The position numbers and the translations under genes are program-made. Positions 288 to 16,272 of a stretch of DNA of 64,000 nucleotides are shown here, in pieces; the first letter of the stretch is position 1; the number at the start of each line of letters is the position of its first letter. The stretch covers positions 10,898 to 74,897 of the forward strand of contig PBGD01000007.1 of assembly GCA_002718895.1 (NCBI GenBank), given 5' to 3'. The notes beneath the pieces are model-generated. The model searched no databases and was not told the DNA's origin. It worked only from the letters and a program-made list of their open reading frames with translations. Source of the stretch: Flavobacteriales bacterium. GTDB lineage: Bacteria; Bacteroidota; Bacteroidia; Flavobacteriales; TMED113.

Positions 288-2405
288 TTATCGCTTAACT
301 ATTTCTATAGTTGTATCCTCTTTAAGGTCAAAAGTTAATTCAGTTTTATATATTTTTTTATTATTGATTTTAAAATAAGTAAAATTAGGACATGTTTCAT
401 CAATAATTTTTATTGTGTATTCTATTCCTGAAAAGTACTCTCCCAGAAAGTCACCCTGAAGACTTAAACTATTTAAATTAAAAGAACATTCTGACAGAAT
501 TTTAATTGTATACACGGATTTAATTTGAAAATATTTTTTTAATTGTTTTTTTATATTTTCAGGTCTTTTATTAAAAAATGTATACATCTTTTTAAGATTT
601 AATCTTTCCCATTTTTTAATTATTTTTTCATTGGTCCCAAAGTATTTTTTAGAGTCATATTTTTTAAGCAGTCGAGGCATTTCTGGCTCAATTTTTTTTT
701 GGAAATCTAATGCTGCTGAGAATATATTTTCTGGCTTTAGAAGGGTGTTTAATAGATCCATATACCTTGTCAAAAAGGTCTCCTTAATGTGGGTATTTGA
801 TAAGAAAACCAAAAACTCTTTATTAGAAGCTTCTTGCAATAAATACTCGAACATATCGTGTTCATACATATTATTTTTTTTAGACCCGATTCCTGCATCT
901 AAATCAACTAATAAGTATTTCCATTTTGTGTTTTTTTCTGAATTCCAGAACATAGAGTTATTAGGAATCCAATCTAGGTTTGCAGCATAAGTTTGCGTAA
1001 TATAGTAGTCAGTCCAATTTTTTATATCAAAATGACCTATAGCTCTTTCAGTTTCTAAAGGAGAATTTTTAATTGATAATTTCTTTATCTTTTCCCTAAG
1101 CTCAATGTATGATTTATTGTTGCCAATTATTTCTACGCCCCATAGTTTTAATAATGAATAATTATCGTCTCTACCAAAAGACTCTTCAAAATATGTTTTG
1201 TTGTATCTTTCTCTAAGATGTAATAAACCATAATACTCTCCATTAATAAAAACAACACATGGTTGTGCTGCTTGAAAATCTACATTAATTTTAGGGCCTA
1301 AATAATTCTGAAAAAAGGCGTCTCTAAAATGAACTTTCAATGCATCTTGTCCTGAGTTTCGAAGTATAATTTCTGAAAATTCATCACTTTTTTTATTCTT
1401 AAATGGTTGAAATTTAAAATTATCATTTTTATTATTTGCAATGAGCCTAATTGATTTTAGGGCACTTGTTTTTGAATAATTGCCGTGAATTTTAATTTTA
1501 ACCTTTTCTTTTAAAAGAGCTTTTTTGTCTTCATTAAAGTATTCGGCAAACGCTGCAAGTTTTATGTTTTTCCAGTAATTAGCGCCTTTATAAGGGAATG
1601 TGTCTTCTGCAGAAAACCCTTTTTTCATAATGCCAATTGTATCATTCCAAATAGAATTACTATCTGCAATTATAGAGACTATAGGTAGTTGGGTTTTTTC
1701 ATTAACAAATAATGATAAGTGCTTGTTTTTACTTTCAAATTCTCCTACAATAAACTTGGCTTTTATAGTGATATTTTCTTTCACTATTAAGCTGTCTTTA
1801 AATTGCTCTGAGTTTTTGTTTGGATTCGATCCATCTGTTGTAAAATACATTGGAATGCTAGATAAAGTTGGATCTATTTTTAGAGTTACAGAATTATTAT
1901 AAAATCCTGATTCTAAATTGAATTTAGGTTTTTTTAATCTTACAATACTTGCATTATTAGTTTTTCCCATACTTCTAGATGACATTGGAACAATCAGTTT
2001 ATTCCCATCTGGGAATCTTCCACAGTATGGTCTATTATTCAATTTTTTTAAATGAAAATCATCAACAATTTCGCCATTAATATTGAGTTGAATACTTATT
2101 TCTTTGGAATTAGTGGGAGTATCTACTTTTGCAAAAAACCAATCTTTCGCTTTTAATTTTGTTAACTCTTCAAGTATTATTTTTTTTGAATTTATTAATA
2201 TAAAAGCAGAGTCAATATTAATATCAAAATTACGAGAATTGAATATTTCTATATATTCTAATTGATTTGGAATTTCTTCAATAAATGATAATTCATTTAT
2301 AAAAACACCGTAGTGATTCTGAGAAAATTTATTGGTGTTTTTTTTAGTTCCTATTGTACAACTACATATTAAAATACATATAATAAACACGTAACATCCC
2401 CTCAT
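288..2405 (-). CDS. CotH kinase family protein with lamin-tail-like and chitobiase/Fn3-associated domains; probable lipoprotein
   Basis: N-terminal hydrophobic stretch ending LICSC. LTD-like INEL...EYIEIFN...GRFPDG. CHB_HEX_C-like FNLESGFY...YFTTDGSNP. CotH motifs KIHGNYS, LRNSGQD, NLDWIPNN, LVDLDAG. Confidence 0.85.
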   Translation of the reverse strand: MRGCYVFIICILICSCTIGTKKNTNKFSQNHYGVFINELSFIEEIPNQLEYIEIFNSRNFDINIDSAFILINSKKIILEELTKLKAKDWFFAKVDTPTNSKEISIQLNINGEIVDDFHLKKLNNRPYCGRFPDGNKLIVPMSSRSMGKTNNASIVRLKKPKFNLESGFYNNSVTLKIDPTLSSIPMYFTTDGSNPNKNSEQFKDSLIVKENITIKAKFIVGEFESKNKHLSLFVNEKTQLPIVSIIADSNSIWNDTIGIMKKGFSAEDTFPYKGANYWKNIKLAAFAEYFNEDKKALLKEKVKIKIHGNYSKTSALKSIRLIANNKNDNFKFQPFKNKKSDEFSEIILRNSGQDALKVHFRDAFFQNYLGPKINVDFQAAQPCVVFINGEYYGLLHLRERYNKTYFEESFGRDDNYSLLKLWGVEIIGNNKSYIELREKIKKLSIKNSPLETERAIGHFDIKNWTDYYITQTYAANLDWIPNNSMFWNSEKNTKWKYLLVDLDAGIGSKKNNMYEHDMFEYLLQEASNKEFLVFLSNTHIKETFLTRYMDLLNTLLKPENIFSAALDFQKKIEPEMPRLLKKYDSKKYFGTNEKIIKKWERLNLKKMYTFFNKRPENIKKQLKKYFQIKSVYTIKILSECSFNLNSLSLQGDFLGEYFSGIEYTIKIIDETCPNFTYFKINNKKIYKTELTFDLKEDTTIEIVKR

Positions 2406-5032
2406 GATCTAATCATTTTTTTAACAATTATTATTAAAAACATTATTAATAGAATATAACTTAAACCTTTATATTTATTAGAATTCTGCACAGAATTTAT
2501 TAAATAATTTGGGCCAATTATTTCAAATTTTTTATGTGAATTATCTAATTCTGAAACCGTAATGTTTTCAATATTTAGTTTTTCGTTTGGAAATAAAATG
2601 CGTTGATTTACACAATTCCAAATGATTTTTTTATTATCAAATATTTGTAAACCCTTTAAATCAATTGGGTACGGTGCATTTGATGTTAGGTATATGCTTG
2701 TCCCATTTTTTTCAGTAAATAATTTATATGGAAATTTCTTATTAGCTTTAATAAATTCAACATGTTTATTGACAAAAGTATTATTAAACATTTCATTTTC
2801 TGATACCGCACTTACAAGATTAGGATTTTCAATAATTATAGGATGAGCATTATTTATGTAGTAATTATTATTTAATTTAATCATACCACTTCCCTCTATC
2901 CCTACTCCTTTTTTGCAAGTCACAATAAGATTATTCTTCACCTGATTATTCATGGATGTGCTATCAATAGTCAACGAAATCCCTTTATCTTTAGAATTAA
3001 TAATTGTATTATTAAACACCTGTATTTGCTTGCCCCAATTCAGGTCAATACCATCATCTGCAGAATTAGTAATAAAGTTATTGTATATTTTAAGATCTTG
3101 ACATTTAGTTCCTTCAATAGCATCAGCTATTCCAATAATTGTATTTTTACTAACATCACCAGAGCAGTCTAACATAAGTACACCTTCACCTGAATTATTT
3201 TCAAAATAATTATTTATTATTGTAACAGGACAATGGTTGAAGCTCACAGACTCTCTGACAAAATTATCAGTGGCTTTACATTTTATCATTTTTGCTTCTC
3301 CTCTTATTTGGCGAATTATAGATTTCCATTTTACTTGTGAAAAATCACAGTATTCTAATTCTAGATCTCCTTCAGAATATATTCCTGACCAAAATAATTC
3401 TTCTCTATGACATTGAATCTTAATAAGATTATTTTTATCACCATGTATTTTTAAACTACCGTAATTTAAAATCTGGCAATTTGGATAAACATAAATCTCA
3501 CTTTTCCCTTTAACAATTAATTTGCCAGATTTTTCAATTTTGAGGTCTTGAGGAATTACAATTACTTTATTTTCAAGAACAACCTTGTCATTAATAGTCC
3601 CTGTTAAGAAGTGTGCTTCTCCGACATTAAAAAAACTTCTTGTGTTGTGACCATTTGTTTTAGTCTGGCCATTTACGGCATTTATGTGCCAATAGTATTT
3701 CCCTTTGGGCAAAGAATATTTGAAAAAAGTATCTCTAATATTTTTAAATATATAAGTTTCTTTATTATCAAATAATTTACTTTCACTTATTTTCAAGTCA
3801 TATGAATTACATTTTTCATTTCCCACATAAGAGTTCCCCCAGGTTAATAAAATGGTGTCTTTAAAATGTTGGTTATAATTATTATACATTAAAAATGGTG
3901 TGGGGGTATTATTAATTTGATTTTTAACCTCTTTTGGTCGATTTATTATATAATTTTTAATTTTTTTAATTTCTTTTTCCCATTGTTTAAAGGAATTTAC
4001 CTGGTCCGTTGTATCAAGATCTATATATTGATCTAAAGTAATTTTAAGTGAATCAATAATTGGATAAAGTACTTCTGGATTAAAAATATTTTCAGATATA
4101 TTTTCAATTTCTTTTTTAATATCTTCAAAAATAACAGGATGTAAAAAAAGTTTTTTAATTAATGGGTTTTCTGGCATAGCCCCAGAAGACAAATTACTCC
4201 ACGAGCAATAATCATATCTTAAAAACTCATTATATGAACTCATAGTTTTATCTAGGTCCCAAGGCAAGTAATACCATTTATTATCATCAATTATGTTGTG
4301 ATATAAAAAGTAATTATGATAGTAAGTGCTACCATTGCCAATTAATATATTTAGAGCAACAGATGATATCAAGTTTTGATAATTAAATTTATCTTTTATA
4401 AACTCACGATATCTATATATCGGTGTATAATTGATTTGATCAATTAATTGCTTAAGATCTTGATTTCCCCAATTTATATTATTTTTTTTTTGCCAATAAT
4501 AGTCCGCATCATCATACATTGACAAATTTGCATAATCTTTGCTAGCTTTATATAAGTTGCCATATGAACTTAAATTATTCCTTAATAGAAAACTATCATC
4601 TACATTTTCTACGTCTAAATAAATTCCTAAAAATTCGTCATTTAAAAATACAGCTTTGTGGGAGCAAGAAAACACAGGCACACTTATCATACTGTATAGT
4701 TGTGATGATAGTTGTTGGTGCATATATGATTTATCTAAATAGTCTGCATTTAGATTAATACTTTTATTTCCACTTTCAGTGGAAAATTTTATTTTAAGTG
4801 ACTTTTTGTTAAATTTTCTTGATGAACTACCTCTAACCCTTACTTTTGAGTTGTACTTTCCTCCGTCATACTGCAACTCACAGTTTATGTAATTATCATC
4901 TAAATAATTTAAGTAAATACCATTAAAATCTTCTGAATCACAATAAACAAATACCGAATCAATTTGTGAGCTAATTAAGTAGTTTGTAAAAAATAAAAAC
5001 ACAAAAATTATTCTTTTTAAATTTCGAGTCAT
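2402..5032 (-). CDS. CotH kinase family protein with Fn3-like and right-handed beta-helix domains and a C-terminal membrane anchor
   Basis: Signal peptide. CotH motifs KVRVRGSSSR.F.KKSLKIKF, LNADYLDKS, YYHNYFLY, YLPWDLDK. Beta-helix repeats (NSADDGIDL, NSKDKGISL). Ends in hydrophobic SYILLIMFLIIIV followed by KKMIRS. Confidence 0.85.
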   Translation of the reverse strand: MTRNLKRIIFVFLFFTNYLISSQIDSVFVYCDSEDFNGIYLNYLDDNYINCELQYDGGKYNSKVRVRGSSSRKFNKKSLKIKFSTESGNKSINLNADYLDKSYMHQQLSSQLYSMISVPVFSCSHKAVFLNDEFLGIYLDVENVDDSFLLRNNLSSYGNLYKASKDYANLSMYDDADYYWQKKNNINWGNQDLKQLIDQINYTPIYRYREFIKDKFNYQNLISSVALNILIGNGSTYYHNYFLYHNIIDDNKWYYLPWDLDKTMSSYNEFLRYDYCSWSNLSSGAMPENPLIKKLFLHPVIFEDIKKEIENISENIFNPEVLYPIIDSLKITLDQYIDLDTTDQVNSFKQWEKEIKKIKNYIINRPKEVKNQINNTPTPFLMYNNYNQHFKDTILLTWGNSYVGNEKCNSYDLKISESKLFDNKETYIFKNIRDTFFKYSLPKGKYYWHINAVNGQTKTNGHNTRSFFNVGEAHFLTGTINDKVVLENKVIVIPQDLKIEKSGKLIVKGKSEIYVYPNCQILNYGSLKIHGDKNNLIKIQCHREELFWSGIYSEGDLELEYCDFSQVKWKSIIRQIRGEAKMIKCKATDNFVRESVSFNHCPVTIINNYFENNSGEGVLMLDCSGDVSKNTIIGIADAIEGTKCQDLKIYNNFITNSADDGIDLNWGKQIQVFNNTIINSKDKGISLTIDSTSMNNQVKNNLIVTCKKGVGIEGSGMIKLNNNYYINNAHPIIIENPNLVSAVSENEMFNNTFVNKHVEFIKANKKFPYKLFTEKNGTSIYLTSNAPYPIDLKGLQIFDNKKIIWNCVNQRILFPNEKLNIENITVSELDNSHKKFEIIGPNYLINSVQNSNKYKGLSYILLIMFLIIIVKKMIRS

Positions 5033-5039
5033 TTTTTCA

Positions 5040-6977
5040 TTATTTAATTAAATACTTTTTCTCAATAGAACCATCATCATAAATTTCTAAATAAAAGCCT
5101 TTGGTTTTTGTTCTAATATTTCCAGGAACATCAATTACACTAATTAACTTTTTAAAATATAGCCTATTGTCATTTGTTTTTAATAAATCTAATTCAAATA
5201 AATTGGAGAATGAAAGGCATCCATTACTATCAATATATGAAACTGAATATGATCCATTTTGTAGTGGTATATAATTAAATTGATTAGCGCCATTAATACT
5301 GTCTCCATTTAAAAACCATTGATAACTCATCATGGACGATTCAGTATACAATGTAGATGAAGAGAAATTAATAGAAGCATTACTAGTTGGATAAAATTCA
5401 ACATTTGTAATAATTACACTATCACAACCAACAGGATTATATAAAGAGTCAATATATACACCTTCTTGAGTATATGTTGAATTTAATACAAATGCTGTAT
5501 CGCCTTCACAAATTGAATTATAAATATAATTAGTTTCATCTGAACACATCAACCCCTTAGCGACATTAATTGAGTATGGATATAAAGCAATATTAACAGT
5601 GCCAGTATCTTTCAATGTTTGTATATAATCATTTCCATCAATTACATCATATAAAGAGTCAGAATAACTTTTTTCCCAAAATACATTATTGCTATTTGAA
5701 AGCATATCGTCAACCGACACTATAATAGTATCTTCTGAAATATTTGTTAAAATAATAGACCCTTCTTGTGTTATCTCGTTTTCAAATCGCCAACCAAATA
5801 ATGTAGGATATTCAACAATTCTTGGCACACCATTATTATTAAAGAAGGTTACAGTATCCATTAAATTAATTGGTGTTTTGATTCTAGTAGCTTTTGATTT
5901 GTCAATTTTGACTTTATTCCATATTGAGGCAAAAACACCAGTAGCTCGTTTTCTATAATTATTTTGTGTATCTAGAGCATCCCAATTTTCAAAAATTCCA
6001 CCAATATTAAACATGCTAATGTCTTCAACCAATTTATTATTTAAAAATAATTGATGAGATGCGCTAAACATTAAAACTAAGCTCCATCTATTTCGGAATC
6101 GGTGATCAGAAGTATTATCCGTAATACCGTATCCAACCCAAAGTTCATAAGGCTGCAAATTCGTTGTTGTATCTTGAAATCCACGTACGGATTCATAAGT
6201 AGGGATTTGATCAAAAGCATATGCTAATAATTGCTTAGTGGTAAACAATGTGTCGGCACCTTTAAGGTAGAAAAATGCAGACCACCTAAATGCATCTGCT
6301 GGATTAGTCATATTATACAAGGCTTCATTCCAATACTGTGCCCTAGGGTTAGAAGCACCAAAGTTTCCAGCTGAAACCGCAATTTTAGTGTTTGGTAGAA
6401 ATGAACGAATAGAGTCAATATAAATATCACAAGTCGCGGCATAATCTTCAGCAGTAGGAAAATGACTAATGCTGTGTGTGTTTCCAGATTTTCCCATTTC
6501 ATCTCCTAGTCTAATTCGTTCAATTGAAACACCATTATTTTTGGCAGAATGTAAACTTTCAAGTTGAGAAGTAATACTACTGCTAATCATATTTAAGCAA
6601 TACAAACCTTCAGCATTCACTTGATTTAATGCATTTTGAAAATTTTCAGGAGTTATGTCAATAACTGTAGCATTTGCTTGACCCCAAGTTAATTGAATAG
6701 AATCAACACAGCAAGTATCTAAAAAAGATTGAGGGTAAAACCATCCATTGTCCCAATCCCATAAATCTGGAGATGGTGGGTAAGCTAATACGTCAGGAAA
6801 CATAGTAGCAACGGAGTCAACAAAAACACTATCCACCCATGATGGACCCCTCCAAGTTTGACCACCAAAATTAGCTGTTGGAATTGATCTATTAAAAGTA
6901 TCTAACTCAAGAATAAATTGTTGCGGAAAAATAAAAGAGCTTAATGAAATAAAAAATATAAATAAAAATTTATTCAT
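5040..6977 (-). CDS. Secreted GH-A clan-like (GH79/GH51-like) barrel protein with a short T9SS-like C-terminal tail
   Basis: Signal peptide. LAYP..PDLWDWDNGW, LNMISS, IRLGDE and ELWVGY resemble clan GH-A strand motifs. GCDS-type Ig-like segment. Tail IDVPG...EIYDDGSIEKKYLIK. Confidence 0.6.
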   Translation of the reverse strand: MNKFLFIFFISLSSFIFPQQFILELDTFNRSIPTANFGGQTWRGPSWVDSVFVDSVATMFPDVLAYPPSPDLWDWDNGWFYPQSFLDTCCVDSIQLTWGQANATVIDITPENFQNALNQVNAEGLYCLNMISSSITSQLESLHSAKNNGVSIERIRLGDEMGKSGNTHSISHFPTAEDYAATCDIYIDSIRSFLPNTKIAVSAGNFGASNPRAQYWNEALYNMTNPADAFRWSAFFYLKGADTLFTTKQLLAYAFDQIPTYESVRGFQDTTTNLQPYELWVGYGITDNTSDHRFRNRWSLVLMFSASHQLFLNNKLVEDISMFNIGGIFENWDALDTQNNYRKRATGVFASIWNKVKIDKSKATRIKTPINLMDTVTFFNNNGVPRIVEYPTLFGWRFENEITQEGSIILTNISEDTIIVSVDDMLSNSNNVFWEKSYSDSLYDVIDGNDYIQTLKDTGTVNIALYPYSINVAKGLMCSDETNYIYNSICEGDTAFVLNSTYTQEGVYIDSLYNPVGCDSVIITNVEFYPTSNASINFSSSTLYTESSMMSYQWFLNGDSINGANQFNYIPLQNGSYSVSYIDSNGCLSFSNLFELDLLKTNDNRLYFKKLISVIDVPGNIRTKTKGFYLEIYDDGSIEKKYLIK

Positions 6978-6997
6978 GAATATATATTATGTTATAT

Positions 6998-7005
6998 CAA
7001 ATATA
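6998..7005 (-). promoter_or_regulatory. Bacteroidota -7 promoter element (TATATTTG)
   Basis: Reverse complement of caaatata matches TAnnTTTG, 20 bp upstream of the 6977 ATG. Confidence 0.6.
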
Positions 7006-7065
7006 ACCCTTTTAAAATTGAGAAAAGTTATTACACTTTTATTTGGATTTTAAACTGATGTAAAC

Positions 7066-7926
7066 TTATTTTATTTGATCTAAAAAAAGAGATCTTCCTA
7101 AACTAATTAACTCATTAGCTTTAAAAAAGTCAAACATGCTGCTAGAACTTCTTGGAACTTTAATCACTAGGTTAGGTTTATGTTTTTCTATTGAATCTTG
7201 TATTATTTTATCTTGCATAATTTGAAAGGTTCTACCAGCAATATCAAAAAAACTACCAACTTGTCCGTTTTTAGTTAGCGAAAAATTGTCAATATTAATT
7301 GGGAGATAACTACTTAAAGATCGGATATATTTATCATAATCAATTAAATAACTCTTTTCTGTTTTATCGTGATTTGGTTCAAATGAATTTAAGTCAATGC
7401 CCATTAAAATATCGCCGTCTATTCTTTCTACATGTGATAATGGTAAGGGATTTATAATCCCTCCATCCACAAGAACTTTATTGTTTAGTTTTACAGGTTT
7501 TACAATTGATGGAATAGCACAAGATGCACGTATGGCATTAAATAAACTTCCTGATCTAAAGACATGCTCCTTGTGTGAAATTAAATCTACAGCTACTGCT
7601 GAATATGGTGTTTTTAAGTTTTCAATTTCAATATCTTGAAAAATCGTTTTAATTTCATTAAATATCTTATCACCCTTTAATATGCCTTGATGATTAATAG
7701 TAAAATCCATTAGACGAAAAACATCTTTTTTATCTAGTTGTACTACCCAATCTGTAAATTTAGATAGGTTGCCAGATGCATACATTCCTCCAATTAATGA
7801 GCCAATAGAGCAACCTGAAATAGAGGTAATTTTATAGCCTTGTTTTTCTAATTCTTCAATAATGCCAATTGCCGCTAACCCCCTTGCCCCTCCACTTGAA
7901 ATAACTAATGCAACATTTTTCATCAC
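7066..7926 (-). CDS. Patatin-like phospholipase (RssA-like)
   Basis: SGGARG oxyanion motif, GCSIG nucleophile elbow, DGG motif. Confidence 0.92.
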   Translation of the reverse strand: MMKNVALVISSGGARGLAAIGIIEELEKQGYKITSISGCSIGSLIGGMYASGNLSKFTDWVVQLDKKDVFRLMDFTINHQGILKGDKIFNEIKTIFQDIEIENLKTPYSAVAVDLISHKEHVFRSGSLFNAIRASCAIPSIVKPVKLNNKVLVDGGIINPLPLSHVERIDGDILMGIDLNSFEPNHDKTEKSYLIDYDKYIRSLSSYLPINIDNFSLTKNGQVGSFFDIAGRTFQIMQDKIIQDSIEKHKPNLVIKVPRSSSSMFDFFKANELISLGRSLFLDQIK

Positions 7927-7982
7927 TATAAATATAATAGTATTTAATTCATTAATTATTTAAATATGGTTTAGTTCCAATG

Positions 7983-9128
7983 TCAGTATTTACGACCATT
8001 TAGTAAAACACCAATTATTGTTTTACGTACAAATAAATGATATGAAGCAATTGAAATAAAAAAAACAATTGTTATAATAATTATAAATTTTAAAGATATC
8101 GGAACAGTAAAATGATTTATTAATCCAGGCAATAAAATAGTTAATGGTAGATGAATTAAATATATCCAATATGAAGCATCAAGGAGGTACTTCATAGAAT
8201 TATTATGAAAATTCAAATACTTTAGAAATAATCCAACAAGTCCATAAATAAATAGCCATGTAGAAAACGCATTTAAAATAATTAACATGTAGTTTTCAAG
8301 AATTTCGAAAAAAAGAAATGAAAGAGTAAATACTATAACTCCAAAAATTGTATAAAACAATGACCCCTCTTTAAAATACTCCATTAAATTATTTGACTTA
8401 AATAAAAACCACCCAAAAATGTAAAACAAGAAATAAAACATAAAGGTTTTTATGGAGGGGATAAAAGAAATTGAGGCATCTATCCAAATACTATTAGAAA
8501 CATATAATATAACAGATGTAATTACTGGTAAAATAGAAATTTTTAAAATTGAATTTGACAAAACATAATCATAAGTTCTATTTGAATATTGTTTCAGGAA
8601 ATCCATTTTTTTACTTTTTAGTATAATTGCATTAATTAGAATTGGAACTATTGAAAATAACATTAAGTAATATAAAAACCATAAATGCATGGTGTTGAAA
8701 GGTATAAAAGTAAATAAATTAATGTGCTCCCAAACATTAAAAGCAAGCGCGTTAGATTCATCTAATCTTAAAGCATTTGTGCTAAACTTAATGCATAAAC
8801 GAGCAATTGGTGTGAGAATAAATACAAATATTATAAAAGGTAAAAAAATTCTTTTCAATCTATTTCTAATCATTATTTTGGGCGATTTATTATAGAATAA
8901 AAAAGCTGCAAAAAAACCTGAAACAATAAAGAAAATAGGCATTCTAAATATGTGAATTACACCGAATAACCAATCAAAAAATATATGATTTGTTTCACTA
9001 TGAATTGGCCACCCAGGATAATGAGAACTAGAAAATGTTATTGCGGTGTGTAAAACTACTCCTAGCAACATCATGATGCCTCTCAGTGCATCAAGAGCGT
9101 GAATTCTTTTATTGTTTAACATAATCAA
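7983..9128 (-). CDS. Acyltransferase family 3 (OpgC/MdoC-like) membrane protein
   Basis: RIHALDALRG...LGVVLH, HIFRMPIFF.VSGFF, RLKRIFLP, HLWFLYYL, ASYWIYLIH; many TM helices. Confidence 0.9.
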   Translation of the reverse strand: MIMLNNKRIHALDALRGIMMLLGVVLHTAITFSSSHYPGWPIHSETNHIFFDWLFGVIHIFRMPIFFIVSGFFAAFLFYNKSPKIMIRNRLKRIFLPFIIFVFILTPIARLCIKFSTNALRLDESNALAFNVWEHINLFTFIPFNTMHLWFLYYLMLFSIVPILINAIILKSKKMDFLKQYSNRTYDYVLSNSILKISILPVITSVILYVSNSIWIDASISFIPSIKTFMFYFLFYIFGWFLFKSNNLMEYFKEGSLFYTIFGVIVFTLSFLFFEILENYMLIILNAFSTWLFIYGLVGLFLKYLNFHNNSMKYLLDASYWIYLIHLPLTILLPGLINHFTVPISLKFIIIITIVFFISIASYHLFVRKTIIGVLLNGRKY

Positions 9129-9142
9129 ATGGTATTAAATTA

Positions 9143-9787
9143 TCACTCATCATTTGGGTTAAGACAAACCATAACCATCGTAATAGCAAATACACATTCC
9201 CACAGTTCTGCGACCCTAGGAATTTGTAATATATTTAAAACTATACTCATTATTAAAAAAACAACACTATACTCCAATTTTGGTATAGGTATACTATATT
9301 TTAAGAATATATTATTAATCGAATTATATTTTTTGTGTATTACAGGTGTAAATAAAAAGTAAACAGACAAAACTGCAACTAATAGATAGGTAAAAATCCA
9401 TTTATTAAGCTTTATTCCATTAATATTTAAATTATGAATATTAGTTTCACTTTGCAGGTTGTTGTCGAGAAAAAAATCTGGTGAACTAATATTAAATATC
9501 CTTTGTCCCCAGGATATCTCTTCAGCAAAGCCAAAAAACAAAATCAAACCCATAATGATCAGTCCTGTTTTTTGAGATAATTTTAATTGTTGCCTTCTTT
9601 TGACAAAAGATTTAAATAATATACAAGAAGCAATTAACAATGCAATAGCAGAGATGTATTCAATAGATCCATCTTCTTTTACAATTTCGGCATATATAGT
9701 TGGATTGATAAAGTACATGCTTGTGCACGTACATATAATTATCATGCAAATACAATAAAATCTAAAAGAAATCAAAAAACTAATCAT
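9143..9787 (-). CDS. Conserved-looking multi-pass membrane protein of unknown function
   Basis: About 5-6 hydrophobic helices; polar motifs KEDGSIE and EEISWGQRIF...NLQSETNIHNL. Confidence 0.7.
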   Translation of the reverse strand: MISFLISFRFYCICMIIICTCTSMYFINPTIYAEIVKEDGSIEYISAIALLIASCILFKSFVKRRQQLKLSQKTGLIIMGLILFFGFAEEISWGQRIFNISSPDFFLDNNLQSETNIHNLNINGIKLNKWIFTYLLVAVLSVYFLFTPVIHKKYNSINNIFLKYSIPIPKLEYSVVFLIMSIVLNILQIPRVAELWECVFAITMVMVCLNPNDE

Positions 9788-9790
9788 TTT

Positions 9791-10216
9791 TTAATGACTA
9801 TGTCCGTGTCCGTGTCCGTGTCCGTGTCCGTGTCCGTGTCCGTGTTCATGTGAATGTAATTTTTTAATATCACTTTCGACATTTTCATACAAACTATATT
9901 CTAATTTACCGCCCAAAAATTTTGCTATTAAAACACCCTCTTTATTATAGTATTCTTCTTTTTTCGGAGCATGGTCATAACAATAATACTTAAGTTGACC
10001 ATTTTTATAATACTCTTTAATAAAATTCGATTTTTTGTTTTTTTCTATACGAATTTGACCGTTTTTAAAAAAAGACTTTGAACTTATTTCTTGATTTTTT
10101 TCGTAAGTAACTTCAAGTTTAATATCGCCATTTCTATAGTATGTTTTTTCTATCGATTGTGACAATAAACTAGATAAAGTCAACAAGGTCATTGATAAGA
10201 AACAATAAATTTTCAT
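9791..10216 (-). CDS. Exported MORN-variant-repeat (YwqK-like) protein with a His-rich C-terminal tail
   Basis: Signal peptide; repeats YYRNGDIK, FFKNGQIR, YYKNGQLK, YYNKEG; tail HSHE(HG)7HSH. Confidence 0.75.
   Translation of the reverse strand: MKIYCFLSMTLLTLSSLLSQSIEKTYYRNGDIKLEVTYEKNQEISSKSFFKNGQIRIEKNKKSNFIKEYYKNGQLKYYCYDHAPKKEEYYNKEGVLIAKFLGGKLEYSLYENVESDIKKLHSHEHGHGHGHGHGHGHGHSH
9801..9842. repeat. Perfect hexanucleotide tandem repeat (TGTCCG)7
   Basis: Seven consecutive tgtccg units read directly; encodes (HG)7 on the minus strand. Confidence 0.97.
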
Positions 10217-10260
10217 TTTATAAAATAAAAACTATAGAGCTGTTAATATTATAAAAATTA

Positions 10261-11517
10261 CTATTCAATAATGTATTTTTTGTCCACAGTGCCATCATCA
10301 TAGATTTCAAATTTAAATGATTTATTGGCATTATCTCTACCCATTAAATCTATCCATTGTATTATTGATTTAGTGTTTGGTTTTTCTATTATATTACTAG
10401 AACTGCAACAAGAACACATTACATCGGGATCTCCCCATTGAGAGCCGGTAGAATTAAAGTTAGTAAATCCGTTGTTTGCATAATCTAAACACCATTCACA
10501 CCATGAGTTTTGGTTTGGTCCCCCATTAGGATCAGATACAGGCCATGCATTGTATGTGTCACAACCAAAATCACACCAATCTTGACAATCAACCAAAGAT
10601 GTATATGTTCCACTTCCATCACCTGGGTCGGTACATTCATAGCCATTTGTTGTTGTGTTTAATTTACAACTCCAAGTGGCTGGTGGTGGAGGGCAACAAT
10701 CACACATTACATCGGGATCTCCCCAATTCACACCATTAGGATTAAAGTTGGGATAGTAGAATGAATTTGGGTTTTGATAATCTATACACCATTCACACCA
10801 TGAATTTTGATTTGGTCCACCGTTAGGGTCAGATGTTGGCCATGAACTATATGTATTACATTGACACAATTGATCTAGGGTGATGATTATTGAAGAATTT
10901 GCTACTGCTTCACAGTCAGCTAATGAAGAATACTGTCCACTTCCATCTCCTGGATCTGAGCACTCATAATAAGCAGCTTGCGGATTTATCGTGATACACC
11001 AGCTTGGTGTTGGAGTAGGAGTGCAGCAATCGCAAGACACATCAGGATCAGGACCCCAAGTAGCTCCGGTTGCATTAAAGTTAGTAAATCCGTTATTTGC
11101 ATAGTCTACACACCATTCACACCATGAATTTTGATTTGGTCCACCATTAGGATCAGATGCAGGCCAAGTATCATATGTATCGCAAAGATCACAAATAGGT
11201 TCACAATCCGATAAACAGCAGTATTGACCACTTCCGTCTCCTGGATCTACACATCCATCTGGTGTACAGTTGTAGCTTTCAGTCTGATTATTATCACAAC
11301 ATTCGCAAGAAACATCAGGATCAGGACCCCAAGTGGCTCCAGTTGCATTAAAATTTTGGAAATTATTGTTAGCGTAATCTACACACCACTCACACCATGA
11401 ATTTTGGTTTGGTCCACCATTGGGATCAGATGCAGGCCAAGTAGAATATAGCGAGCAGTCTTGAGAAAATGATGAAAAAGAGATGAGTATTCCAATAAAA
11501 AATAAGATGTGTTTCAT
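10261..11517 (-). CDS. Secreted cysteine-rich repeat protein with a short T9SS-like C-terminal tail
   Basis: Start moved to the ATG at 11517 (MKHILFF...SFSQ signal peptide) because a promoter box overlaps the TTG at 11544. Four ~54-aa modules alternate with three DPGDGSG modules. Tail IDLMGR...EIYDDGTVDKKYIIE. Confidence 0.85.
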   Translation of the reverse strand: MKHILFFIGILISFSSFSQDCSLYSTWPASDPNGGPNQNSWCEWCVDYANNNFQNFNATGATWGPDPDVSCECCDNNQTESYNCTPDGCVDPGDGSGQYCCLSDCEPICDLCDTYDTWPASDPNGGPNQNSWCEWCVDYANNGFTNFNATGATWGPDPDVSCDCCTPTPTPSWCITINPQAAYYECSDPGDGSGQYSSLADCEAVANSSIIITLDQLCQCNTYSSWPTSDPNGGPNQNSWCEWCIDYQNPNSFYYPNFNPNGVNWGDPDVMCDCCPPPPATWSCKLNTTTNGYECTDPGDGSGTYTSLVDCQDWCDFGCDTYNAWPVSDPNGGPNQNSWCEWCLDYANNGFTNFNSTGSQWGDPDVMCSCCSSSNIIEKPNTKSIIQWIDLMGRDNANKSFKFEIYDDGTVDKKYIIE

Positions 11518-11541
11518 AATGCTAAATGTTAAAATTTTTAG

Positions 11542-11549
11542 CAAAGGTA
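11542..11549 (-). promoter_or_regulatory. Bacteroidota -7 promoter element (TACCTTTG)
   Basis: Reverse complement of caaaggta, 24 bp upstream of ATG 11517. Confidence 0.65.
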
Positions 11550-11557
11550 CAAATTAT

Positions 11558-13291
11558 TTATTTGTTAAAGATTTTGCGCACAGAGCCATCATGCATAATT
11601 TCAAGATATAATCCTTTTTCTACAGTAGATCTTCCTAATAAATCAATTCTTTTAATTACATGAGATGTATTTAATTCTTCAATTGACAATGGAGTTTCAT
11701 CACATGCATCACCATAGCCATCACCATCAGAATCAGCTTGATCAGGGTTATAATCCCAGTAACAATTGTCACATGCATTACCAACACCATCATCGTCATT
11801 ATCAGATTGAGTAATGTTATAATTTTGATAGCAATTATCACATGCATTACCATAACCATCGCCATCGCTATCTGATTGACTTATGTTATAATCATCAACA
11901 CAGTTATCAACTTCATCTAGAATACCATCTCCATCAGCATCAGCAAACGGAGCACCACACTCATATTCTAGAGTTTCACAATTTGAATTTAAGCAACTAC
12001 TATTTAACTTAGGTATCAAAACCTGTGACTTTACAATTGGATGAAACTCGAAATATAAATCTGCAAGGCTAGTTACATGACAATAACTCATTATAGTTCC
12101 ATATTCGTAAGTAGAATTTAAAAATAACCCATCAGGGTTGCCGTAGCAACTATCATCAGGGTCAAATAAGCTTCCATACATATTGCAGTTATCTATTGCT
12201 CCACCAGGAAAATCATAATTTGCATCAGCATTCCAAACACAATCATGGGTGTGATTAGCACCAATATTGTGACCCAGTTCATGAGATACTACCATAAAAT
12301 GCCACGAATAAAAATTACTAAATGGTTGAGATAAATAATTATAATTAATAGTTGTACCTAGTCCTCCAGTTACGGCATAACCCCATTGATTTGAGCAAAG
12401 TACATCTAATTCAGCAAGTCCGCCGCCCACACTTTTTCTAGTAAATAAATGTGCAATATCTCGCTCTACCTGAGTAAATTGAGATGGCCACTGCCAAGTA
12501 TCTTCAAATGCATTTAGATATTCGTACATGTCATCATTTAGCTCATTGTACGGACCAGGTGTTTCCCATACATGCACATAACTAGCTTGAACAATTGCAT
12601 CTAACTCAGACGTGTATATTTCACTAACACCAGTTAAAATAGCTAGTGCCCATTCAACAGCATCTTCGCAACTATAATCAAATTCACTATAGGTGTAGAA
12701 GTCAATTTCAACAGCCATATTTAAACATAGTTGGTTACCACTTCGTTCATTTGAATTATGAAAATCTATATTTTGAGGTGTATTATCGCTTGTTTTTGTG
12801 TGGCAATTAAAATTAAAATCAGCAATCGTATCAGACATGTCCACAAGAGCATAATGATTATTCTCTATGTGGACAATTTCATAAACTTTACCATCTTTTT
12901 TCAATACACCAATTAATACATTTTTATAGATTGATAAACTCCCAGAAATTTGGGTTTTTCCTAAAACTCGATAAGAAATTGTTTTAGGGACGTAATCTTC
13001 CTCCTTATAACCTGTATCAGTTGTCCTACCTAATTTGAAACTTTGAGTGTAAGCTTCAAAATAATTTAACTCAAGTGTTAAGGATGTATTATTGAAAAAA
13101 GGTATTTGTACAGTCTTATAGCAAGGTTGAAAATTTGTTAAACTATCAATTAATTCTAGGTTTATATCTAAATAAATGGTGTTTTTAGCTTGATTAGTCA
13201 AAGGTTCTCCCGCTATGTCAGATAATATAAAAATATCTGATTGGCTTAAGCAAATGAAAGGGATGAGAATAATGAATAAAATTTTTTTCAC
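11558..13291 (-). CDS. Secreted M12 (reprolysin-like) zinc metalloprotease with thrombospondin type-3 repeats and a short T9SS-like tail
   Basis: HELGHNIGANH (HExxHxxGxxH), Met-turn TIMSY, repeats DxDGDGxxDxCDNC, tail IDLLGR...EIMHDGSVRKIFNK; GTG start. Confidence 0.9.
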   Translation of the reverse strand: MKKILFIILIPFICLSQSDIFILSDIAGEPLTNQAKNTIYLDINLELIDSLTNFQPCYKTVQIPFFNNTSLTLELNYFEAYTQSFKLGRTTDTGYKEEDYVPKTISYRVLGKTQISGSLSIYKNVLIGVLKKDGKVYEIVHIENNHYALVDMSDTIADFNFNCHTKTSDNTPQNIDFHNSNERSGNQLCLNMAVEIDFYTYSEFDYSCEDAVEWALAILTGVSEIYTSELDAIVQASYVHVWETPGPYNELNDDMYEYLNAFEDTWQWPSQFTQVERDIAHLFTRKSVGGGLAELDVLCSNQWGYAVTGGLGTTINYNYLSQPFSNFYSWHFMVVSHELGHNIGANHTHDCVWNADANYDFPGGAIDNCNMYGSLFDPDDSCYGNPDGLFLNSTYEYGTIMSYCHVTSLADLYFEFHPIVKSQVLIPKLNSSCLNSNCETLEYECGAPFADADGDGILDEVDNCVDDYNISQSDSDGDGYGNACDNCYQNYNITQSDNDDDGVGNACDNCYWDYNPDQADSDGDGYGDACDETPLSIEELNTSHVIKRIDLLGRSTVEKGLYLEIMHDGSVRKIFNK

Positions 13292-13295
13292 GAAT

Positions 13296-13303
13296 CAAAT
13301 ATA
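13296..13303 (-). promoter_or_regulatory. Bacteroidota -7 promoter element (TATATTTG) for the M12 protease gene
   Basis: Reverse complement of caaatata, 4 bp from the GTG start at 13291. Confidence 0.55.
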
Positions 13304-13304
13304 G

Positions 13305-13312
13305 TACTTTTG
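13305..13312 (+). promoter_or_regulatory. Bacteroidota -7 promoter element (TACTTTTG) for the divergent CotH gene
   Basis: Matches TAnnTTTG, 17 bp upstream of ATG 13330. Confidence 0.6.
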
Positions 13313-13329
13313 TACAAACGCATAATCTT

Positions 13330-16272
13330 ATGAGATATTTTAAAACCATCCTATTATTTATTTTAGTTTTTATTTCATGTAATAATCAAAAAAATAATGA
13401 TTTAAAAAACAATATTATATACTATTGTGATGCTGAAAATGCTACGGCAGATAAAAAGCAATTTATTACTCATGGAGACAAATTTGGTGGTGCTAAATCT
13501 AGAAATTCTGAAGATGCATACAAAGGAAATTATTCATGTAAGTTAGATCAAAGGATTAAGTATGGAATGGAAAAAAAAATATATGATGTTGTTCCAGGTG
13601 AATTGATCAAAGTCTCAGTTTTTCGCAAAAGTTCTATTGATAATAGTAAAGGCTTTTTAGTTGTTTCCACATCCAATTTAGAAGATGATCAAAAAATTTA
13701 TCAAAGTAGAAATAAAAGTTTTGGTGAAAAGGATGAAAATGGATGGGAGCATATTGCATTTGATGTTCAAATTCCGAAAAAAGGTATAAAAATATCAGTA
13801 CTTAAAGTGTATGTATATTTGGCTGATCAAGAGGGAGAGACTGTCTATTTTGATGACCTATTAATTGAGAGAGACTTTAGTAGATTAAGTTCTAAAAAAT
13901 ATGGTAAAGAAGCTATTAGTATTCAAATGGCAGATGTACATTATAACAAATTATTTGCTATGAGAGATACAGCTTTTTTGCAGGGAGTTATAAGCAGTAA
14001 CTTAAAAAAATTCGTTCCTGGAATTCTAAGTTATAAGGGAGAAAAATTTCCAATTGAAATAAGGTTAAAAGGAGATTGGACTGATCATATAATTGGTGGC
14101 AAGTGGTCGTTCAGAATAAAATTAAGACAATCACAAAGTTTAATGGGCTTAAAGCAGTTTTCACTCCAAAGTCCTGCAACAAGAAGTTTTTTAAATGAAT
14201 GGATAATACATGAAATGTGTCATGATGAGGATATTTTATCAACTCGTTATGAGTTCCACCCTTTAATAATTAATGGTATGTCATTTGGCATCTATGCATT
14301 AGAAGAACACTTTACTAAGCAATTAATAGAATCCAAAAAAAGAAGGGAAGGACCAATTTTAAAATTTGATGAGAATGGTCTTTGGGAAAGAGAACTATAT
14401 TATAAGAAGAATAATAAATATTTAAATAAGCCATTTTTTGAAGCTTCTAAGATTTTGCCATTTCAAAAGGGTAAAACTATTAGAACACCAAATTTGAAAA
14501 ACCAGTTTTTAATTGCTCAGAACTTAATGTTAAAATATAAAAATGGAGATTCTGATTTTACTAGTTATTTAGACCTAGATAGATTAGCAAAAGCATATGC
14601 AATCATGACCATCGGAAACGTTAAACATGCTTTCACATGGCACAATCAACGGTTTTACTATAATCCTGTTCTTAGTAAATTAGAACTAATTGTGTATGAC
14701 TGCTACCCTAATGCTACTCAACAAAAAACGGATCCAAAGATATTTGGAAATTGGGAAGAGGGTACACACTTTGTTAAACCTTCTGAATATGCAACTTTGG
14801 CCGTATTTAACGATTTAAATTTTAATCAGACTTATTTATATTACTTAAAAAAGTTTACTGCAAATTCTTACTATCAAAACTTTTTATCTTCTAAAAAAGA
14901 CAAAATAGACTCAATACAAACATTAATTTCGAAAGATTATTTGGGTTATAAGTTTAATAATGAATCATTTTGGAGCAATATTGAAAAGGTCAAAACCATG
15001 ATCACTGAGTATGAAGAAAAAATAAATAAAGAAACAATAAGATTTTCTAGGGAAAACAAAGTATATAATGAGAAAACTGATACTGTTTTCCCTTCAGTGT
15101 CACTAGTTGCTCATTTAGAGCAATCATACCCAGATGGAACAGCACAAATATCTTTGACTAATTATCATACAAAATCAATTATAGTGTGTGGTTATTCGAC
15201 AAAAGAAGATAGAGACAGTATTGTTGTACTTAACTCTCAGTTTTCTATGCTGCCAAGTATTTCAAAAGATGTAAAATATATTTTTGATAAAAATCCGTAT
15301 AAAATCTTTTATAAAGAAAATAACCAAAGCAATAAAACTACACATAGTTGTCTAGTTTCTAATTGGAACAAACCAGTTTTAAAATCAGAGTTATATAATT
15401 TAATGACCACTAAATTAGATTCCAATTGCGATTTTCTAAAAATAGATAGTAGCCAAGTTACTTTTTTAAAGGGTAGACATTTTGTAGAAAGAAGTATTAT
15501 TATTCCAAAAAACATGAATGTTGTATTTGAGCCAGGCACAGAATTAATATTTGACAATGAAACATTTTTTATAAGTTACTCATCTATTGATATGCAAGGG
15601 ACATTAGAAAATCCTATAAAAATCACATCTCTAGATAATACGGCTAACGGATTTACAATTTTTCAAGCCCCTGAAAGGTCTGTTCTTAAACACGTAGTTT
15701 TTGACGGTTTGAATACACTTGATCTTTATGGTTGGACATTAACGGGTGCAGTAAGTTTTTATGAATCAGATGTTGATATTAGCTATTGTGAATTTAATAA
15801 TAATGTATGTGAAGATGGTCTAAATGTTATACGCTCAGATTTCAATTTTGTAAATAGCACAATGACTAACACAGCTTTTGATGCTATAGACGGGGACTTT
15901 TGTACTGGAGAGATATCTGACTCAAAATTCTATACACTAGGCAATGATTGCTTAGATTTTTCTGGTAGTTACATGAAAATCAAGAACTGTCAAATTAATA
16001 GTGCTGGAGATAAGGGAATTTCATGTGGAGAAGCATCCACTCTAAATGTAAGTGATATTAAAATAGATGGAGCTCATACAGGTGCCGCTTCTAAAGATCA
16101 CTCAAAATTATTTATAAATAATATTGATATTAATAATTGTAAAATTGCATTTTCTAGTTTTGAAAAAAAATCTGAATATGGTCCAGGATATATGGAAGTA
16201 AAAAATTATAAAATAAATAATACACCAGTTGAATCAAATTCAATAGATGGTTCGAAAATATTATTAAAATAA
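13330..16272 (+). CDS. Lipoprotein with a carbohydrate-binding-like N-domain, a CotH kinase domain and a C-terminal beta-helix
   Basis: Lipobox FISC. CBM-like AYKGNYSCKL...VYFDDLLIE. Kinase motifs IRLKGDWTDH, KWSFRIKL, YALEEHF, WHNQRFYYNP, IVYD. Beta-helix repeats (CEDGLN, FDAIDGDF, NDCLDFSGS, DKGISCGE). Confidence 0.8.
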   Translation: MRYFKTILLFILVFISCNNQKNNDLKNNIIYYCDAENATADKKQFITHGDKFGGAKSRNSEDAYKGNYSCKLDQRIKYGMEKKIYDVVPGELIKVSVFRKSSIDNSKGFLVVSTSNLEDDQKIYQSRNKSFGEKDENGWEHIAFDVQIPKKGIKISVLKVYVYLADQEGETVYFDDLLIERDFSRLSSKKYGKEAISIQMADVHYNKLFAMRDTAFLQGVISSNLKKFVPGILSYKGEKFPIEIRLKGDWTDHIIGGKWSFRIKLRQSQSLMGLKQFSLQSPATRSFLNEWIIHEMCHDEDILSTRYEFHPLIINGMSFGIYALEEHFTKQLIESKKRREGPILKFDENGLWERELYYKKNNKYLNKPFFEASKILPFQKGKTIRTPNLKNQFLIAQNLMLKYKNGDSDFTSYLDLDRLAKAYAIMTIGNVKHAFTWHNQRFYYNPVLSKLELIVYDCYPNATQQKTDPKIFGNWEEGTHFVKPSEYATLAVFNDLNFNQTYLYYLKKFTANSYYQNFLSSKKDKIDSIQTLISKDYLGYKFNNESFWSNIEKVKTMITEYEEKINKETIRFSRENKVYNEKTDTVFPSVSLVAHLEQSYPDGTAQISLTNYHTKSIIVCGYSTKEDRDSIVVLNSQFSMLPSISKDVKYIFDKNPYKIFYKENNQSNKTTHSCLVSNWNKPVLKSELYNLMTTKLDSNCDFLKIDSSQVTFLKGRHFVERSIIIPKNMNVVFEPGTELIFDNETFFISYSSIDMQGTLENPIKITSLDNTANGFTIFQAPERSVLKHVVFDGLNTLDLYGWTLTGAVSFYESDVDISYCEFNNNVCEDGLNVIRSDFNFVNSTMTNTAFDAIDGDFCTGEISDSKFYTLGNDCLDFSGSYMKIKNCQINSAGDKGISCGEASTLNVSDIKIDGAHTGAASKDHSKLFINNIDINNCKIAFSSFEKKSEYGPGYMEVKNYKINNTPVESNSIDGSKILLK

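Follow-up and report, generated by a model that had tools for sequence, protein, structure and literature searches.

We analysed a 64,000-nt window of the genome of a marine Flavobacteriales bacterium (genome G000, contig C7, positions 10898-74897), in which positions 288-16272 hold ten open reading frames (ORFs), here w1 to w10, whose products include three domains of the CotH kinase family. This region is probably a lineage-specific accessory patchwork of genes for surface and secreted proteins and not one system, with two conserved units in it, the gene pair w2-w1 and the family of w10. An initial annotation of the same DNA had proposed a single extracytoplasmic system that builds a coat, and had named as its fallback a dumping ground of unrelated secreted genes. 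The fallback is close to our finding; the single system was not borne out, as its genes are scattered or absent in relatives and two of the three CotH domains are without the catalytic aspartate. In streamlined marine Flavobacteriales, a gene-dense CotH cluster is not to be taken for an operon.

The ten genes do not travel together

The layout given by the initial annotation was confirmed, with ten genes, nine of them co-oriented on the minus strand at spacings of -4 to 88 nt, and a gap of 38 bp before the divergent w10. Backbone genes flank the region, a 200-aa gene (C7:10042-10644) and umuDC on one side and the gene of methionyl-tRNA synthetase (MetRS) on the other. The cluster is not bounded by the window, since two further CotH genes lie 6-11 kb upstream (C7:278-1615 and C7:3252-4703), separated from it by YceI, umuDC, SDR and other genes.

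To follow the genes outside G000 (1.34 Mb in 34 contigs, ∼28% G+C, 85% completeness), it was compared with 40 relatives, 41 genomes in all. CotH is found in 28 of them and in 15/15 genomes of the same family, with between 1 and 7 copies per genome; the distributions of other genes of the region are listed in Table 1. Among w9-like genes of other genomes, only one of 24 is on a contig with a CotH gene, at a distance of 13 kb. In G002, 3.7 kb separate the w4 homolog from umuD and contain none of w1-w3, and w3 homologs are located on CotH-free contigs in G011, G014 and G012 (contig C45). In G004 the distance from MetRS to the 200-aa flanking gene is ∼6.6 kb, with one CotH gene between, therefore the window cluster occupies a variable slot between backbone genes.

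Larger collections of loci gave the same picture. By tblastn at 1e-6, the 79 loci of w10 relatives, with flanks of at most 10 kb, contained no homolog of w1, w3-w9 or w11 and one CotH gene of the D-type described below, and the 80 loci from the w2 alignment, with flanks of at most 8 kb, contained none of w3-w7, the w8 and w9 matches being only those of the tail and of TSP3 repeats in locus L109. The comparison of gene neighbourhoods that the initial annotation had called for thus found no recurring co-occurrence of the ten genes in relatives, and only adjacency of the w2-w1 type recurs. On these distributions, it is best to regard w4-w9 as independent genes of the surface, the envelope or the backbone, which are neighbours by position and not demonstrable partners.

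Compact spacing is the norm in G000: a crude ORF call gave 92% coding sequence, a median same-strand gap of 8 nt with 82% of gaps at or below 88 nt, and 21 co-oriented runs of at least nine genes comprising 23% of all genes. Therefore the close packing of these genes does not speak for an operon. The internal promoter boxes that had been raised against a single operon lose their weight as well, because sigma-70-like sites are at chance level (121 observed, 111.5 ± 9.3 in shuffles) in a scan whose model is poorly suited to Bacteroidota promoters, and a terminator scan likewise gave no excess over shuffles. Within the gap between w9 and w10, ∼20 nt ahead of the w10 start, we noted TACTTTTG, which fits the Bacteroidota -7 promoter consensus, TAnnTTTG.

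That all ten genes form one coat-building system, in which w8 and w3 would be phosphorylated by CotH proteins and matured by an M12B protease, with acyltransferase and patatin reshaping the envelope, is highly improbable on these data. The absence of co-occurrence outside the species tells against it, and the co-orientation of nine genes with gaps of at most 88 nt, which would favour it, has to be read against the packing of the whole genome. Every product except the patatin looks exported or membrane-bound, as such a system would have it; the patatin is without a signal peptide and has another context in relatives. CotH genes are unusually numerous, with 7 copies in 1.34 Mb by a six-frame PF08757 search and 5 of them inside 26 kb of C7, the gene order is the same in other metagenome populations, and cargo with a shared C-terminal tail is modestly enriched near CotH genes. 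On the other hand, the catalytic Asp is absent from two of the three CotH domains, and the repeats of w8 are rich in Cys, Asp, Asn, Gly, Pro and Trp and not of the Ser/Lys/Arg-rich CotB/CotG kind.

A recurring pair of CotH genes

The start of w1 overlaps the stop of w2 as ATGA. The probable lipoprotein w1 has, by Pfam, a CotH domain and one like CHB_HEX_C, and w2 has a signal peptide, a CotH domain, a beta-helix (Pfam Beta_helix and NosD) and a C-terminal membrane anchor. Both CotH matches exceed the PF08757 gathering score of 23.8 bits.

A single w2 query retrieved no related locus, and an alignment of five w2 orthologs was needed. We collected 56 loci with a N[GA]STYYHN protein, a set biased by the motif itself being among the scan patterns; four of the w2-type loci are the same records as relatives G005, G007, G008 and G010. 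Where at least 1.8 kb was available downstream, a second CotH gene on the same strand starts -178 to +20 nt from the w2-type gene in 19/46 loci, and in the size class of w2 (790-1070 aa) such a gene is directly downstream in 17 of 18. The downstream partner is D-type, with Asp retained and the metal-binding Asn replaced by Ser, in 14 of the 19 pairs, w1/A-type in 3, and 2 are unresolved. Moreover, an uncultured bacterium metagenome-assembled genome encodes a natural fusion of 1415 aa (L111:3874-8118, + strand), in which an NGS-type CotH domain (aa 115-460) is followed by an Asp-bearing one (aa 582-912). Because of the ATGA overlap, the adjacency in 19/46 loci and this fusion, the w2-w1 pair is a real conserved unit elsewhere, and by its gene structure a translationally coupled one. 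The fusion protein has a tail at its end that resembles type IX secretion system (T9SS) tails.

Export signals vary within the w2 subfamily: members of ∼1100 aa finish in canonical T9SS C-terminal domains (CTDs), those of ∼900 aa bear lipoprotein-like signals, and the C-terminal membrane anchor is found in w2 and its two nearest relatives. In general, all CotH proteins look extracytoplasmic, since each sequence, as we read it, either begins with a signal peptide or a lipobox-like stretch or contains a membrane anchor or an export tail.

We considered whether the CotH genes of C7 arose by recent duplication in tandem and rejected this, since the CotH tree places these paralogues in old, deeply separated clades (support 100/100 for the NGS clade and 100/98 for the D-type clade). 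A third CotH subtype, with the motif K-N-I-D-A-Y-R-L-S-T ... W-D-F-N, is represented by the upstream gene C7:3252-4703 (in locus L001), its orthologs and the partners in L117-L155; the product of C7:3252-4703 keeps the Asp, has Ser in place of Asn, and bears the short tail described below. In a literature search that did not cover subscription journals, we found no paper describing the Ser-variant CotH subfamily, paired CotH genes, CotH of Flavobacteriia or the short tail.

Active sites of the three CotH domains

In Bacillus subtilis CotH, the substitutions D228Q and D251A are reported to be catalytically inactive (PMC7821199, citing Nguyen et al. 2016), and PMC7821199 presents Bacillus CotH as the sole family member with demonstrated activity. 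In a phmmer alignment of w2 to 5jd9, the B. cereus protein reads QNFD(224)GFVHN(229)Y ... WD(247)YD, with a spacing of 23 residues that fits D228 to D251. Because this spacing equals that of D228-D251, the Asp of N-x-D would be the catalytic one, the Asn five residues on a metal ligand, and WD.D would contain the DFG-like Asp. These positions were compared in 29 CotH domains from G000 and relatives and in subfamily alignments.

The w1/A-type motif is NLDWIPNN ... VDLD, and D478, N483, D501 and D503 are invariant in 9/9 sequences. In w2 the motif reads NGSTYYHNY ... PWDLD: Ser is at the position of the catalytic Asp in 5/5 orthologs (30-56% identity) and in 82/82 w2 homologs (29-100% identity over the domain), a count that is possibly biased, with candidates chosen by shared five-residue words and the motif used as a pattern in the locus scan. 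In the w10 family, N-x-x-H-A-x-x-W-H-N ... Y-D-C-Y is without the Asp and that position is variable; H433, which adjoins it, is invariant in 23/23 together with W437, H438, N439, D457 and an N-lobe block LKGDW.DH. The metal-binding Asn and the DFG-like Asp are present in all three proteins (NN ... VDLD in w1, HN ... WDLD in w2 and HN ... YDCY in w10), and the catalytic Asp is found in w1 only.

Thus, of the three CotH-type kinases claimed by the initial annotation, the three CotH domains stand, that of w10 mainly by fold, and the full catalytic set is limited to one: w1 alone appears to have the canonical kinase constellation. The active sites of w2 and w10, as read from the alignments, look like conserved variants and not like decay.

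Fold, family and neighbours of w10

The check by hidden Markov model that had been suggested succeeded with hmmscan for w1 and w2. For w10, hmmscan gave no Pfam match even at E≤10, and PF08757 was found only in the six-frame genome search, at 40.6 bits (cut-off 23.8). An AlphaFold model built on 23 sequences (pLDDT 88.8, pTM 0.85) aligns aa 192-566 to B. cereus CotH over 326-330 of ∼358 residues, with Z-scores of 27.0 and 26.8 to 5jda and 5jd9 and root mean square deviations (rmsd) of 3.2-3.3 Å, and Foldseek with the same model returned 5jd9 at the top (E 3.6e-12). On this model, w10 is confirmed as the third CotH-fold protein of the region, an assignment made mainly by fold. Among PDB sequences, neither phmmer with w1 nor a profile search with the w10 family retrieved a CotH.

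The remaining parts of this 980-aa probable lipoprotein are arranged around the CotH fold, in the order of a domain like a carbohydrate-binding module (CBM), the CotH fold, an immunoglobulin (Ig)-like domain and an AlgG-like beta-helix. Residues ∼28-182 form a beta-sandwich like those of CBM4/16/22/61 (TM-score to target ∼0.6). The beta-helix (aa 685-980) is closest to AlgG (Z 27.6, rmsd 2.3 Å over 267 residues) and to the A-modules of AlgE4 and AlgE6 (Z 26), and structure comparison also places it near polysaccharide lyases, GH87 enzymes and phage tailspikes. Compared with AlgG/AlgE epimerases and polysaccharide-lyase beta-helices, the likeness is in the fold of this part; identity is only 10-14%, and the w10 beta-helix is fused to a CotH fold that is absent from the epimerases.

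The relatives of w10 belong to a large, distant Bacteroidota family of more than 1500 homologs of ∼980-1000 aa, most of them with precomputed PF08757 and PF13229 matches. No homolog was found in the 40 relatives of G000, and the nearest full-length homologs outside the species are only 44-47% identical. Neighbours in the 79 w10-family loci were clustered and one representative per cluster was annotated. DUF4956 is found in 27/79 loci and VTC, a polyphosphate-polymerase-like gene, in 22/79, in most cases immediately downstream and in the same orientation. There is a GT2 glycosyltransferase in 13/79 loci, and a T9SS-CTD protein in 17/79, mostly divergent upstream; the latter was considered as a counterpart of w9 and rejected (BLASTP E 0.41). 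In G000 itself, VTC and DUF4956 are found only at C14:16464-17854, and C14 has no CotH match, so the adjacency of w10 relatives to this gene pair is seen elsewhere and not here. On C14 (15839-17854), VTC and DUF4956 are followed by a same-strand gene for a 224-aa protein that is outer-membrane-protein-like. Among the 41 genomes, 18 have VTC and all 18 have CotH, VTC lying within ∼2.5 kb of a CotH gene (∼750-790 aa) in 11 of the 18, and 0/13 CotH-negative genomes have VTC; related genomes are not independent samples for these counts, and no statistic is given.

The domains of w10 and w2 allow another explanation, in which the CotH/beta-helix proteins and w3 degrade or bind algal glycans and the CotH folds serve as a pseudoenzyme scaffold with no phosphoryl transfer. 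The CBM-like N-domain of w10 and its beta-helix nearest to AlgG, AlgE, polysaccharide lyases and GH87 would suit it, as would the Beta_helix and NosD matches of w2, the GH79/GH39-like language-model features of w3, the dockerin-like ends of some w3 homologs, and the missing catalytic Asp in w2 and w10. We regard it as doubtful. Around the active site, w2 keeps HN, WDLD and the N-lobe R.RG.SSR..KKSLKIK, and the w10 family keeps K247, D249, D252, H253, H433, H438, N439 and D457; invariant surroundings of this kind in Asp-less subfamilies argue for catalysis and not for decay. The VTC/DUF4956 link points to phosphate chemistry, and no SusC/SusD-type genes were found among the 26 annotated ORFs of C7:1-31,200 (12 in L001 and 14 in window positions 1-20282).

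The distribution of w10 also bears on the possibility that w5-w10 are a recently acquired foreign island with CotH genes as passengers without a role in the host envelope. For w5, w8 and w10 there are no real homologs in the 40 relatives, against more than 1500 homologs of w10 in distant Bacteroidota, and G+C is raised at 10-13 kb of the window (0.33-0.37, compared with ∼0.26-0.30 around). However, the stretch of high G+C is where the Cys/Gly/Asp/Pro-rich w8 and w9 lie and may reflect amino-acid composition, no integrase, transposase or tRNA gene was found among the ORFs of 1-20 kb, and the arrangement is fixed in several populations. With w10 only 44-47% identical to its nearest outside homologs, any transfer would not be recent, and we consider the island very unlikely.

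A short C-terminal tail shared by w3, w8 and w9

The claim that three genes share a C-terminal tail holds for w3, w8 and w9, whose products end in a common tail of ∼45 aa with a consensus of about I-D-L-L-G-R, 5-9 residues, and L-x-I-Y-D-D-G-S-V-E-K-K-Y-I-I-K. The tail does not set this locus apart: a profile search found 23 ORFs of G000 that end in it, on many contigs. It is therefore a mark of a common export route only.

The tails of w3, w8 and w9 have no match to Pfam, NCBIfam or TIGR04183. TIGR04183 has 41 other matches in G000, 40 of them over the cut-off, and none is one of these tails. The genome encodes SprA (SprA_N, 556 bits, on contig C19), and the short tail resembles the type A CTD of T9SS (TIGR04183/PF18962) in three respects: it stands at the C-terminus of numerous signal-peptide proteins that have nothing else in common, in a genome with SprA, the two share a central 'v.I.D..G+' strand, and the tail is swapped for a canonical CTD in some homologs. 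The strand was aligned by hhalign to the canonical CTDs of G000 over 14 columns at 30% probability, and the swap concerns 7/115 w3 homologs, which end in a canonical YPNP-type CTD (PF18962), most of the others ending in the short tail. Unlike the type A CTD, the tail has ∼45 aa instead of ∼72 aa and is without the N-terminal YPNP strand. Type A and type B are the T9SS signal classes described in PMC9143113 and PMC12618676.

Tail hits at C-termini number 45 in 416 kb of same-family loci (22/28 loci), compared with 1 among the w10-family loci of other Bacteroidota (1.32 Mb) and 6 in 1.17 Mb of w2-family loci, all 6 in two same-family records. Among the loci compared, the tail is thus confined to this family of marine Flavobacteriales and one MED-G20 record. 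The tail is probably a short lineage-specific export signal, a truncated variant of the T9SS type A kind, as suggested by its sequence and distribution. Current T9SS models miss it, and the secretomes of these abundant ocean bacteria are undercounted by them, with 23 such proteins beside 40 canonical ones in G000.

Observations that favour a closer association

Several results weigh against a patchwork. Contigs from three other marine metagenome runs of two other studies, spanning w1/w2, w2/w3, w4/w5 and w9/w10, have identical gene order. Within the species the arrangement is therefore a stable one, and all nine genes may be co-transcribed. Homologs of w3 are found near CotH in G012 (adjacent), G007 (13 kb) and G023 (17 kb). 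Of 22 tail-bearing non-CotH genes, 4 have a CotH domain no more than 10 kb away, where 1.2 are expected (P 0.033, post hoc); tail-bearing cargo is also dense in the CotH neighbourhoods of relatives, so CotH and cargo may be functionally linked in a looser way. An Acyl_transf_3 gene, although unrelated, is ∼4 kb away in 8/79 w10-family loci. Finally, in addition to the possible bias of the Ser count, the catalytic residues were mapped by one phmmer alignment and by MAFFT alignments bridged by w2.

In the contig comparison, metagenome joints with sides of only 20-36 letters were set aside, being taken for repeats or other organisms.

Comparison with known systems and a possible mechanism

The CotH proteins of the region are of the same fold and family as the Bacillus CotH kinase (PF08757; 5JD9/5JDA), and w1 keeps its Asp, Asn and Asp. 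They differ in being exported lipoproteins, anchored proteins or T9SS-type cargo of a Gram-negative bacterium that is not expected to sporulate, in their fusion to CBM-like, Ig and beta-helix domains, and in having no CotB/CotG-like Ser-rich substrates near their genes; where B. subtilis has D228, Ser is found in w2 and an Asp is missing from w10.

Gram-positive pel loci contain a secreted cotH, a polyphosphate-polymerase-like gene and DUF4956 as an accessory set, whose function is given as unknown (Whitfield et al. 2020, PMC7112168; bioRxiv 10.1101/2024.04.20.589940). The w10 family is similarly flanked by DUF4956 and VTC; the window, in contrast, contains neither VTC nor DUF4956 and no pel operon, and its CotH proteins have beta-helices and non-canonical active sites.

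Fam20A and Fam20C are the pseudokinase-kinase pair of the animal secretory pathway. Like them, the w2-w1 bicistron and the one fusion would bring together an active-site-altered paralogue and a canonical secreted kinase of the same fold outside the cytoplasm. Unlike Fam20A, the Ser variant of w2 keeps the other active-site motifs and may itself be an enzyme, and in 14/19 pairs the partner is the other CotH subtype (Asp kept, Ser for Asn). CotH is described as distantly related to Fam20C (PMC7821199).

In the mechanism that we find most economical with the patchwork reading, CotH proteins face outwards as enzymes and probably act on glycans of the surface or the environment, which their CBM and beta-helix domains would hold; their kinase-fold domains would perform phosphoryl-transfer-type chemistry on these glycans. 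Glycans as CotH substrates had been suggested by the initial annotation and, on the structural model, are plausible because CBM-like and AlgG-like beta-helix domains are fused to the CotH fold. Here w2 would either assist w1 in a regulatory or non-canonical role or itself catalyse an altered chemistry. As there is no ATP outside the cell, polyphosphate associated with VTC/DUF4956 is a possible extracellular phosphoryl donor. The data show the domain content of the proteins, the patterns of their catalytic residues, the distribution of the genes and their synteny; the substrates, the phosphoryl donor, the w2-w1 interaction and the T9SS dependence of the tail are all inferred.

A more far-reaching proposal, which we consider unlikely, is that w2-type and Asp-bearing CotH proteins are a new two-part extracellular enzyme of Bacteroidota and allied phyla. 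The Ser subunit would bind a surface or algal glycan and would activate its partner, as in Fam20A/Fam20C, or catalyse another transfer, the phosphoryl groups coming from polyphosphate that VTC/DUF4956 make and export, and not from ATP; separately, the tail would add to the T9SS signals a third class, specific to this lineage. CotH-like proteins are common in non-sporulating bacteria. The Ser-variant subfamily together with a second CotH gene offers a concrete pair for an extracellular pseudokinase-kinase or glycan-modifying mechanism.

Other genes of the region

Coordinates and distributions are collected in Table 1. The product of w3 is exported and consists of an N-terminal part of ∼475 aa, a Cys-rich region and the short tail. 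It has no Pfam or NCBIfam match, and a Pfam hmmscan at E≤10 gave nothing useful. We found 116 homologs, with 39-80% identity among 23 that were aligned. ESM Atlas features place w3 with GH79/GH39/ASD1 clusters at 0.95-0.97, and the N-terminal ∼475 aa are possibly a glycoside hydrolase like those of clan GH-A, which we take as a lead only; an AlphaFold2 model (pLDDT 48) was dropped from the fold searches. About 40 of 115 w3 homologs (P0144-P0217) end in a dockerin-like double repeat, D-L-N-x-D-G-x-V-x-x-x-D-L-L. One w3 enzyme core thus carries three different C-terminal modules in marine Flavobacteriales.

The patatin, acyltransferase-3, membrane protein and His-tailed exported protein listed by the initial annotation correspond to w4, w5, w6 and w7. 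For w4, matches to Pfam Patatin (E 2.6e-30) and, below the cut-off, to NCBIfam RssA (E 1.8e-52), together with the absence of a signal peptide, indicate an RssA-like patatin phospholipase, apparently a backbone gene outside any CotH unit. By its matches to Acyl_transf_3 (Pfam, E 2.8e-30) and MdoC (NCBIfam, E 2.6e-44, below cut-off), w5 is predicted to be a lineage-specific OpgC/MdoC-like membrane acyltransferase. Hydrophobic segments are visible in the sequence of w6, a multi-pass membrane protein that has no family at E≤0.01; at E≤10 hmmscan gave nothing useful and it is not recognisably DUF4956. An hmmscan of w11 at E≤10 likewise gave nothing useful. The exported w7 has MORN_2 repeats (E 3.7e-06, below cut-off) and a His-rich (HG)n end.

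Four Cys-rich repeats of ∼55 aa, three C.DPGDGSG.Y linker modules and the tail make up the exported w8. It has no Pfam match and no usable match in the ESM Atlas, whose record begins at residue 10, and only 17 representatives were found at E≤1e-10 among 1.84 billion proteins. Its protease neighbour, as annotated initially, keeps the zinc motif HELGHNIGANH: w9 matches Reprolysin_5 (Pfam, E 3.5e-15, 57.2 bits) and is, by sequence, a reprolysin-like M12B zinc metalloprotease with TSP3 Ca-binding repeats. It is the third paralog of G000 and is found only there, the C2 and C6 copies having orthologs in relatives.

Table 1. Features of the region (window coordinates) and their occurrence among the 41 genomes
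Feature	Position	Strand	Description	Genomes
w1	288-2405	-	705 aa	
w1 CotH domain	∼600-1496	-	Pfam CotH E 1.9e-29, 103.6 bits; six-frame match C7:11497-12393	
w2	2402-5032	-	876 aa	
w2 CotH domain	∼3932-4843	-	Pfam CotH E 1.8e-54, 185.9 bits	
w3	5040-6977	-	645 aa	7/41 (N-domain)
w3 tail	∼5043-5177		short tail	
w4	7066-7926	-	286 aa	23/41 (patatin); 4/15 in family
w5	7983-9128	-	381 aa	1/41 (G000 only)
w6	9143-9787	-	214 aa	
w7	9791-10216	-	141 aa	
w8	10261-11544	-	427 aa; likely start is the ATG at 11517	2/41 (repeats); one is a 55-residue match, E 1.9e-7
w8 tail	∼10264-10398		short tail	
w9	11558-13291	-	577 aa	17/41 (protease domain); best matches ∼1000-aa and ∼620-aa forms, corresponding to C2 and C6 copies
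w9 tail	∼11561-11695		short tail	
w9/w10 gap	13292-13329	.	divergent intergenic gap, 38 bp	
w10	13330-16272	+	980 aa	1/41 (G000 only)
w10 CotH fold	∼13903-15027		aa 192-566	

Minor observations

The 40-aa linker of w8, C.DPGDGSG.Y..L.DC...C (residues ∼83-125), recurs at 3-9 copies in many otherwise unrelated proteins of the 1.84-billion library; the main repeat W-P-x-S-D-P-N-G-G-P-N-Q-N-S-W-C-E-W-C is very rare, with about a dozen representatives. One RNA run (X21) yielded no more than a single contig of 246 nt within w8, a fragment at 1-294 and some low-complexity fragments covering the (HG)n repeat. In metagenome runs, the (HG)n-coding repeat of w7 (window 9800-9845) draws a summed contig depth that is raised thousands-fold, which is a low-complexity artefact and not abundance. 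Contig C1 of G000 has 39.5% G+C, compared with 25.5-33.6% in the other 33 contigs, and may be mis-binned.

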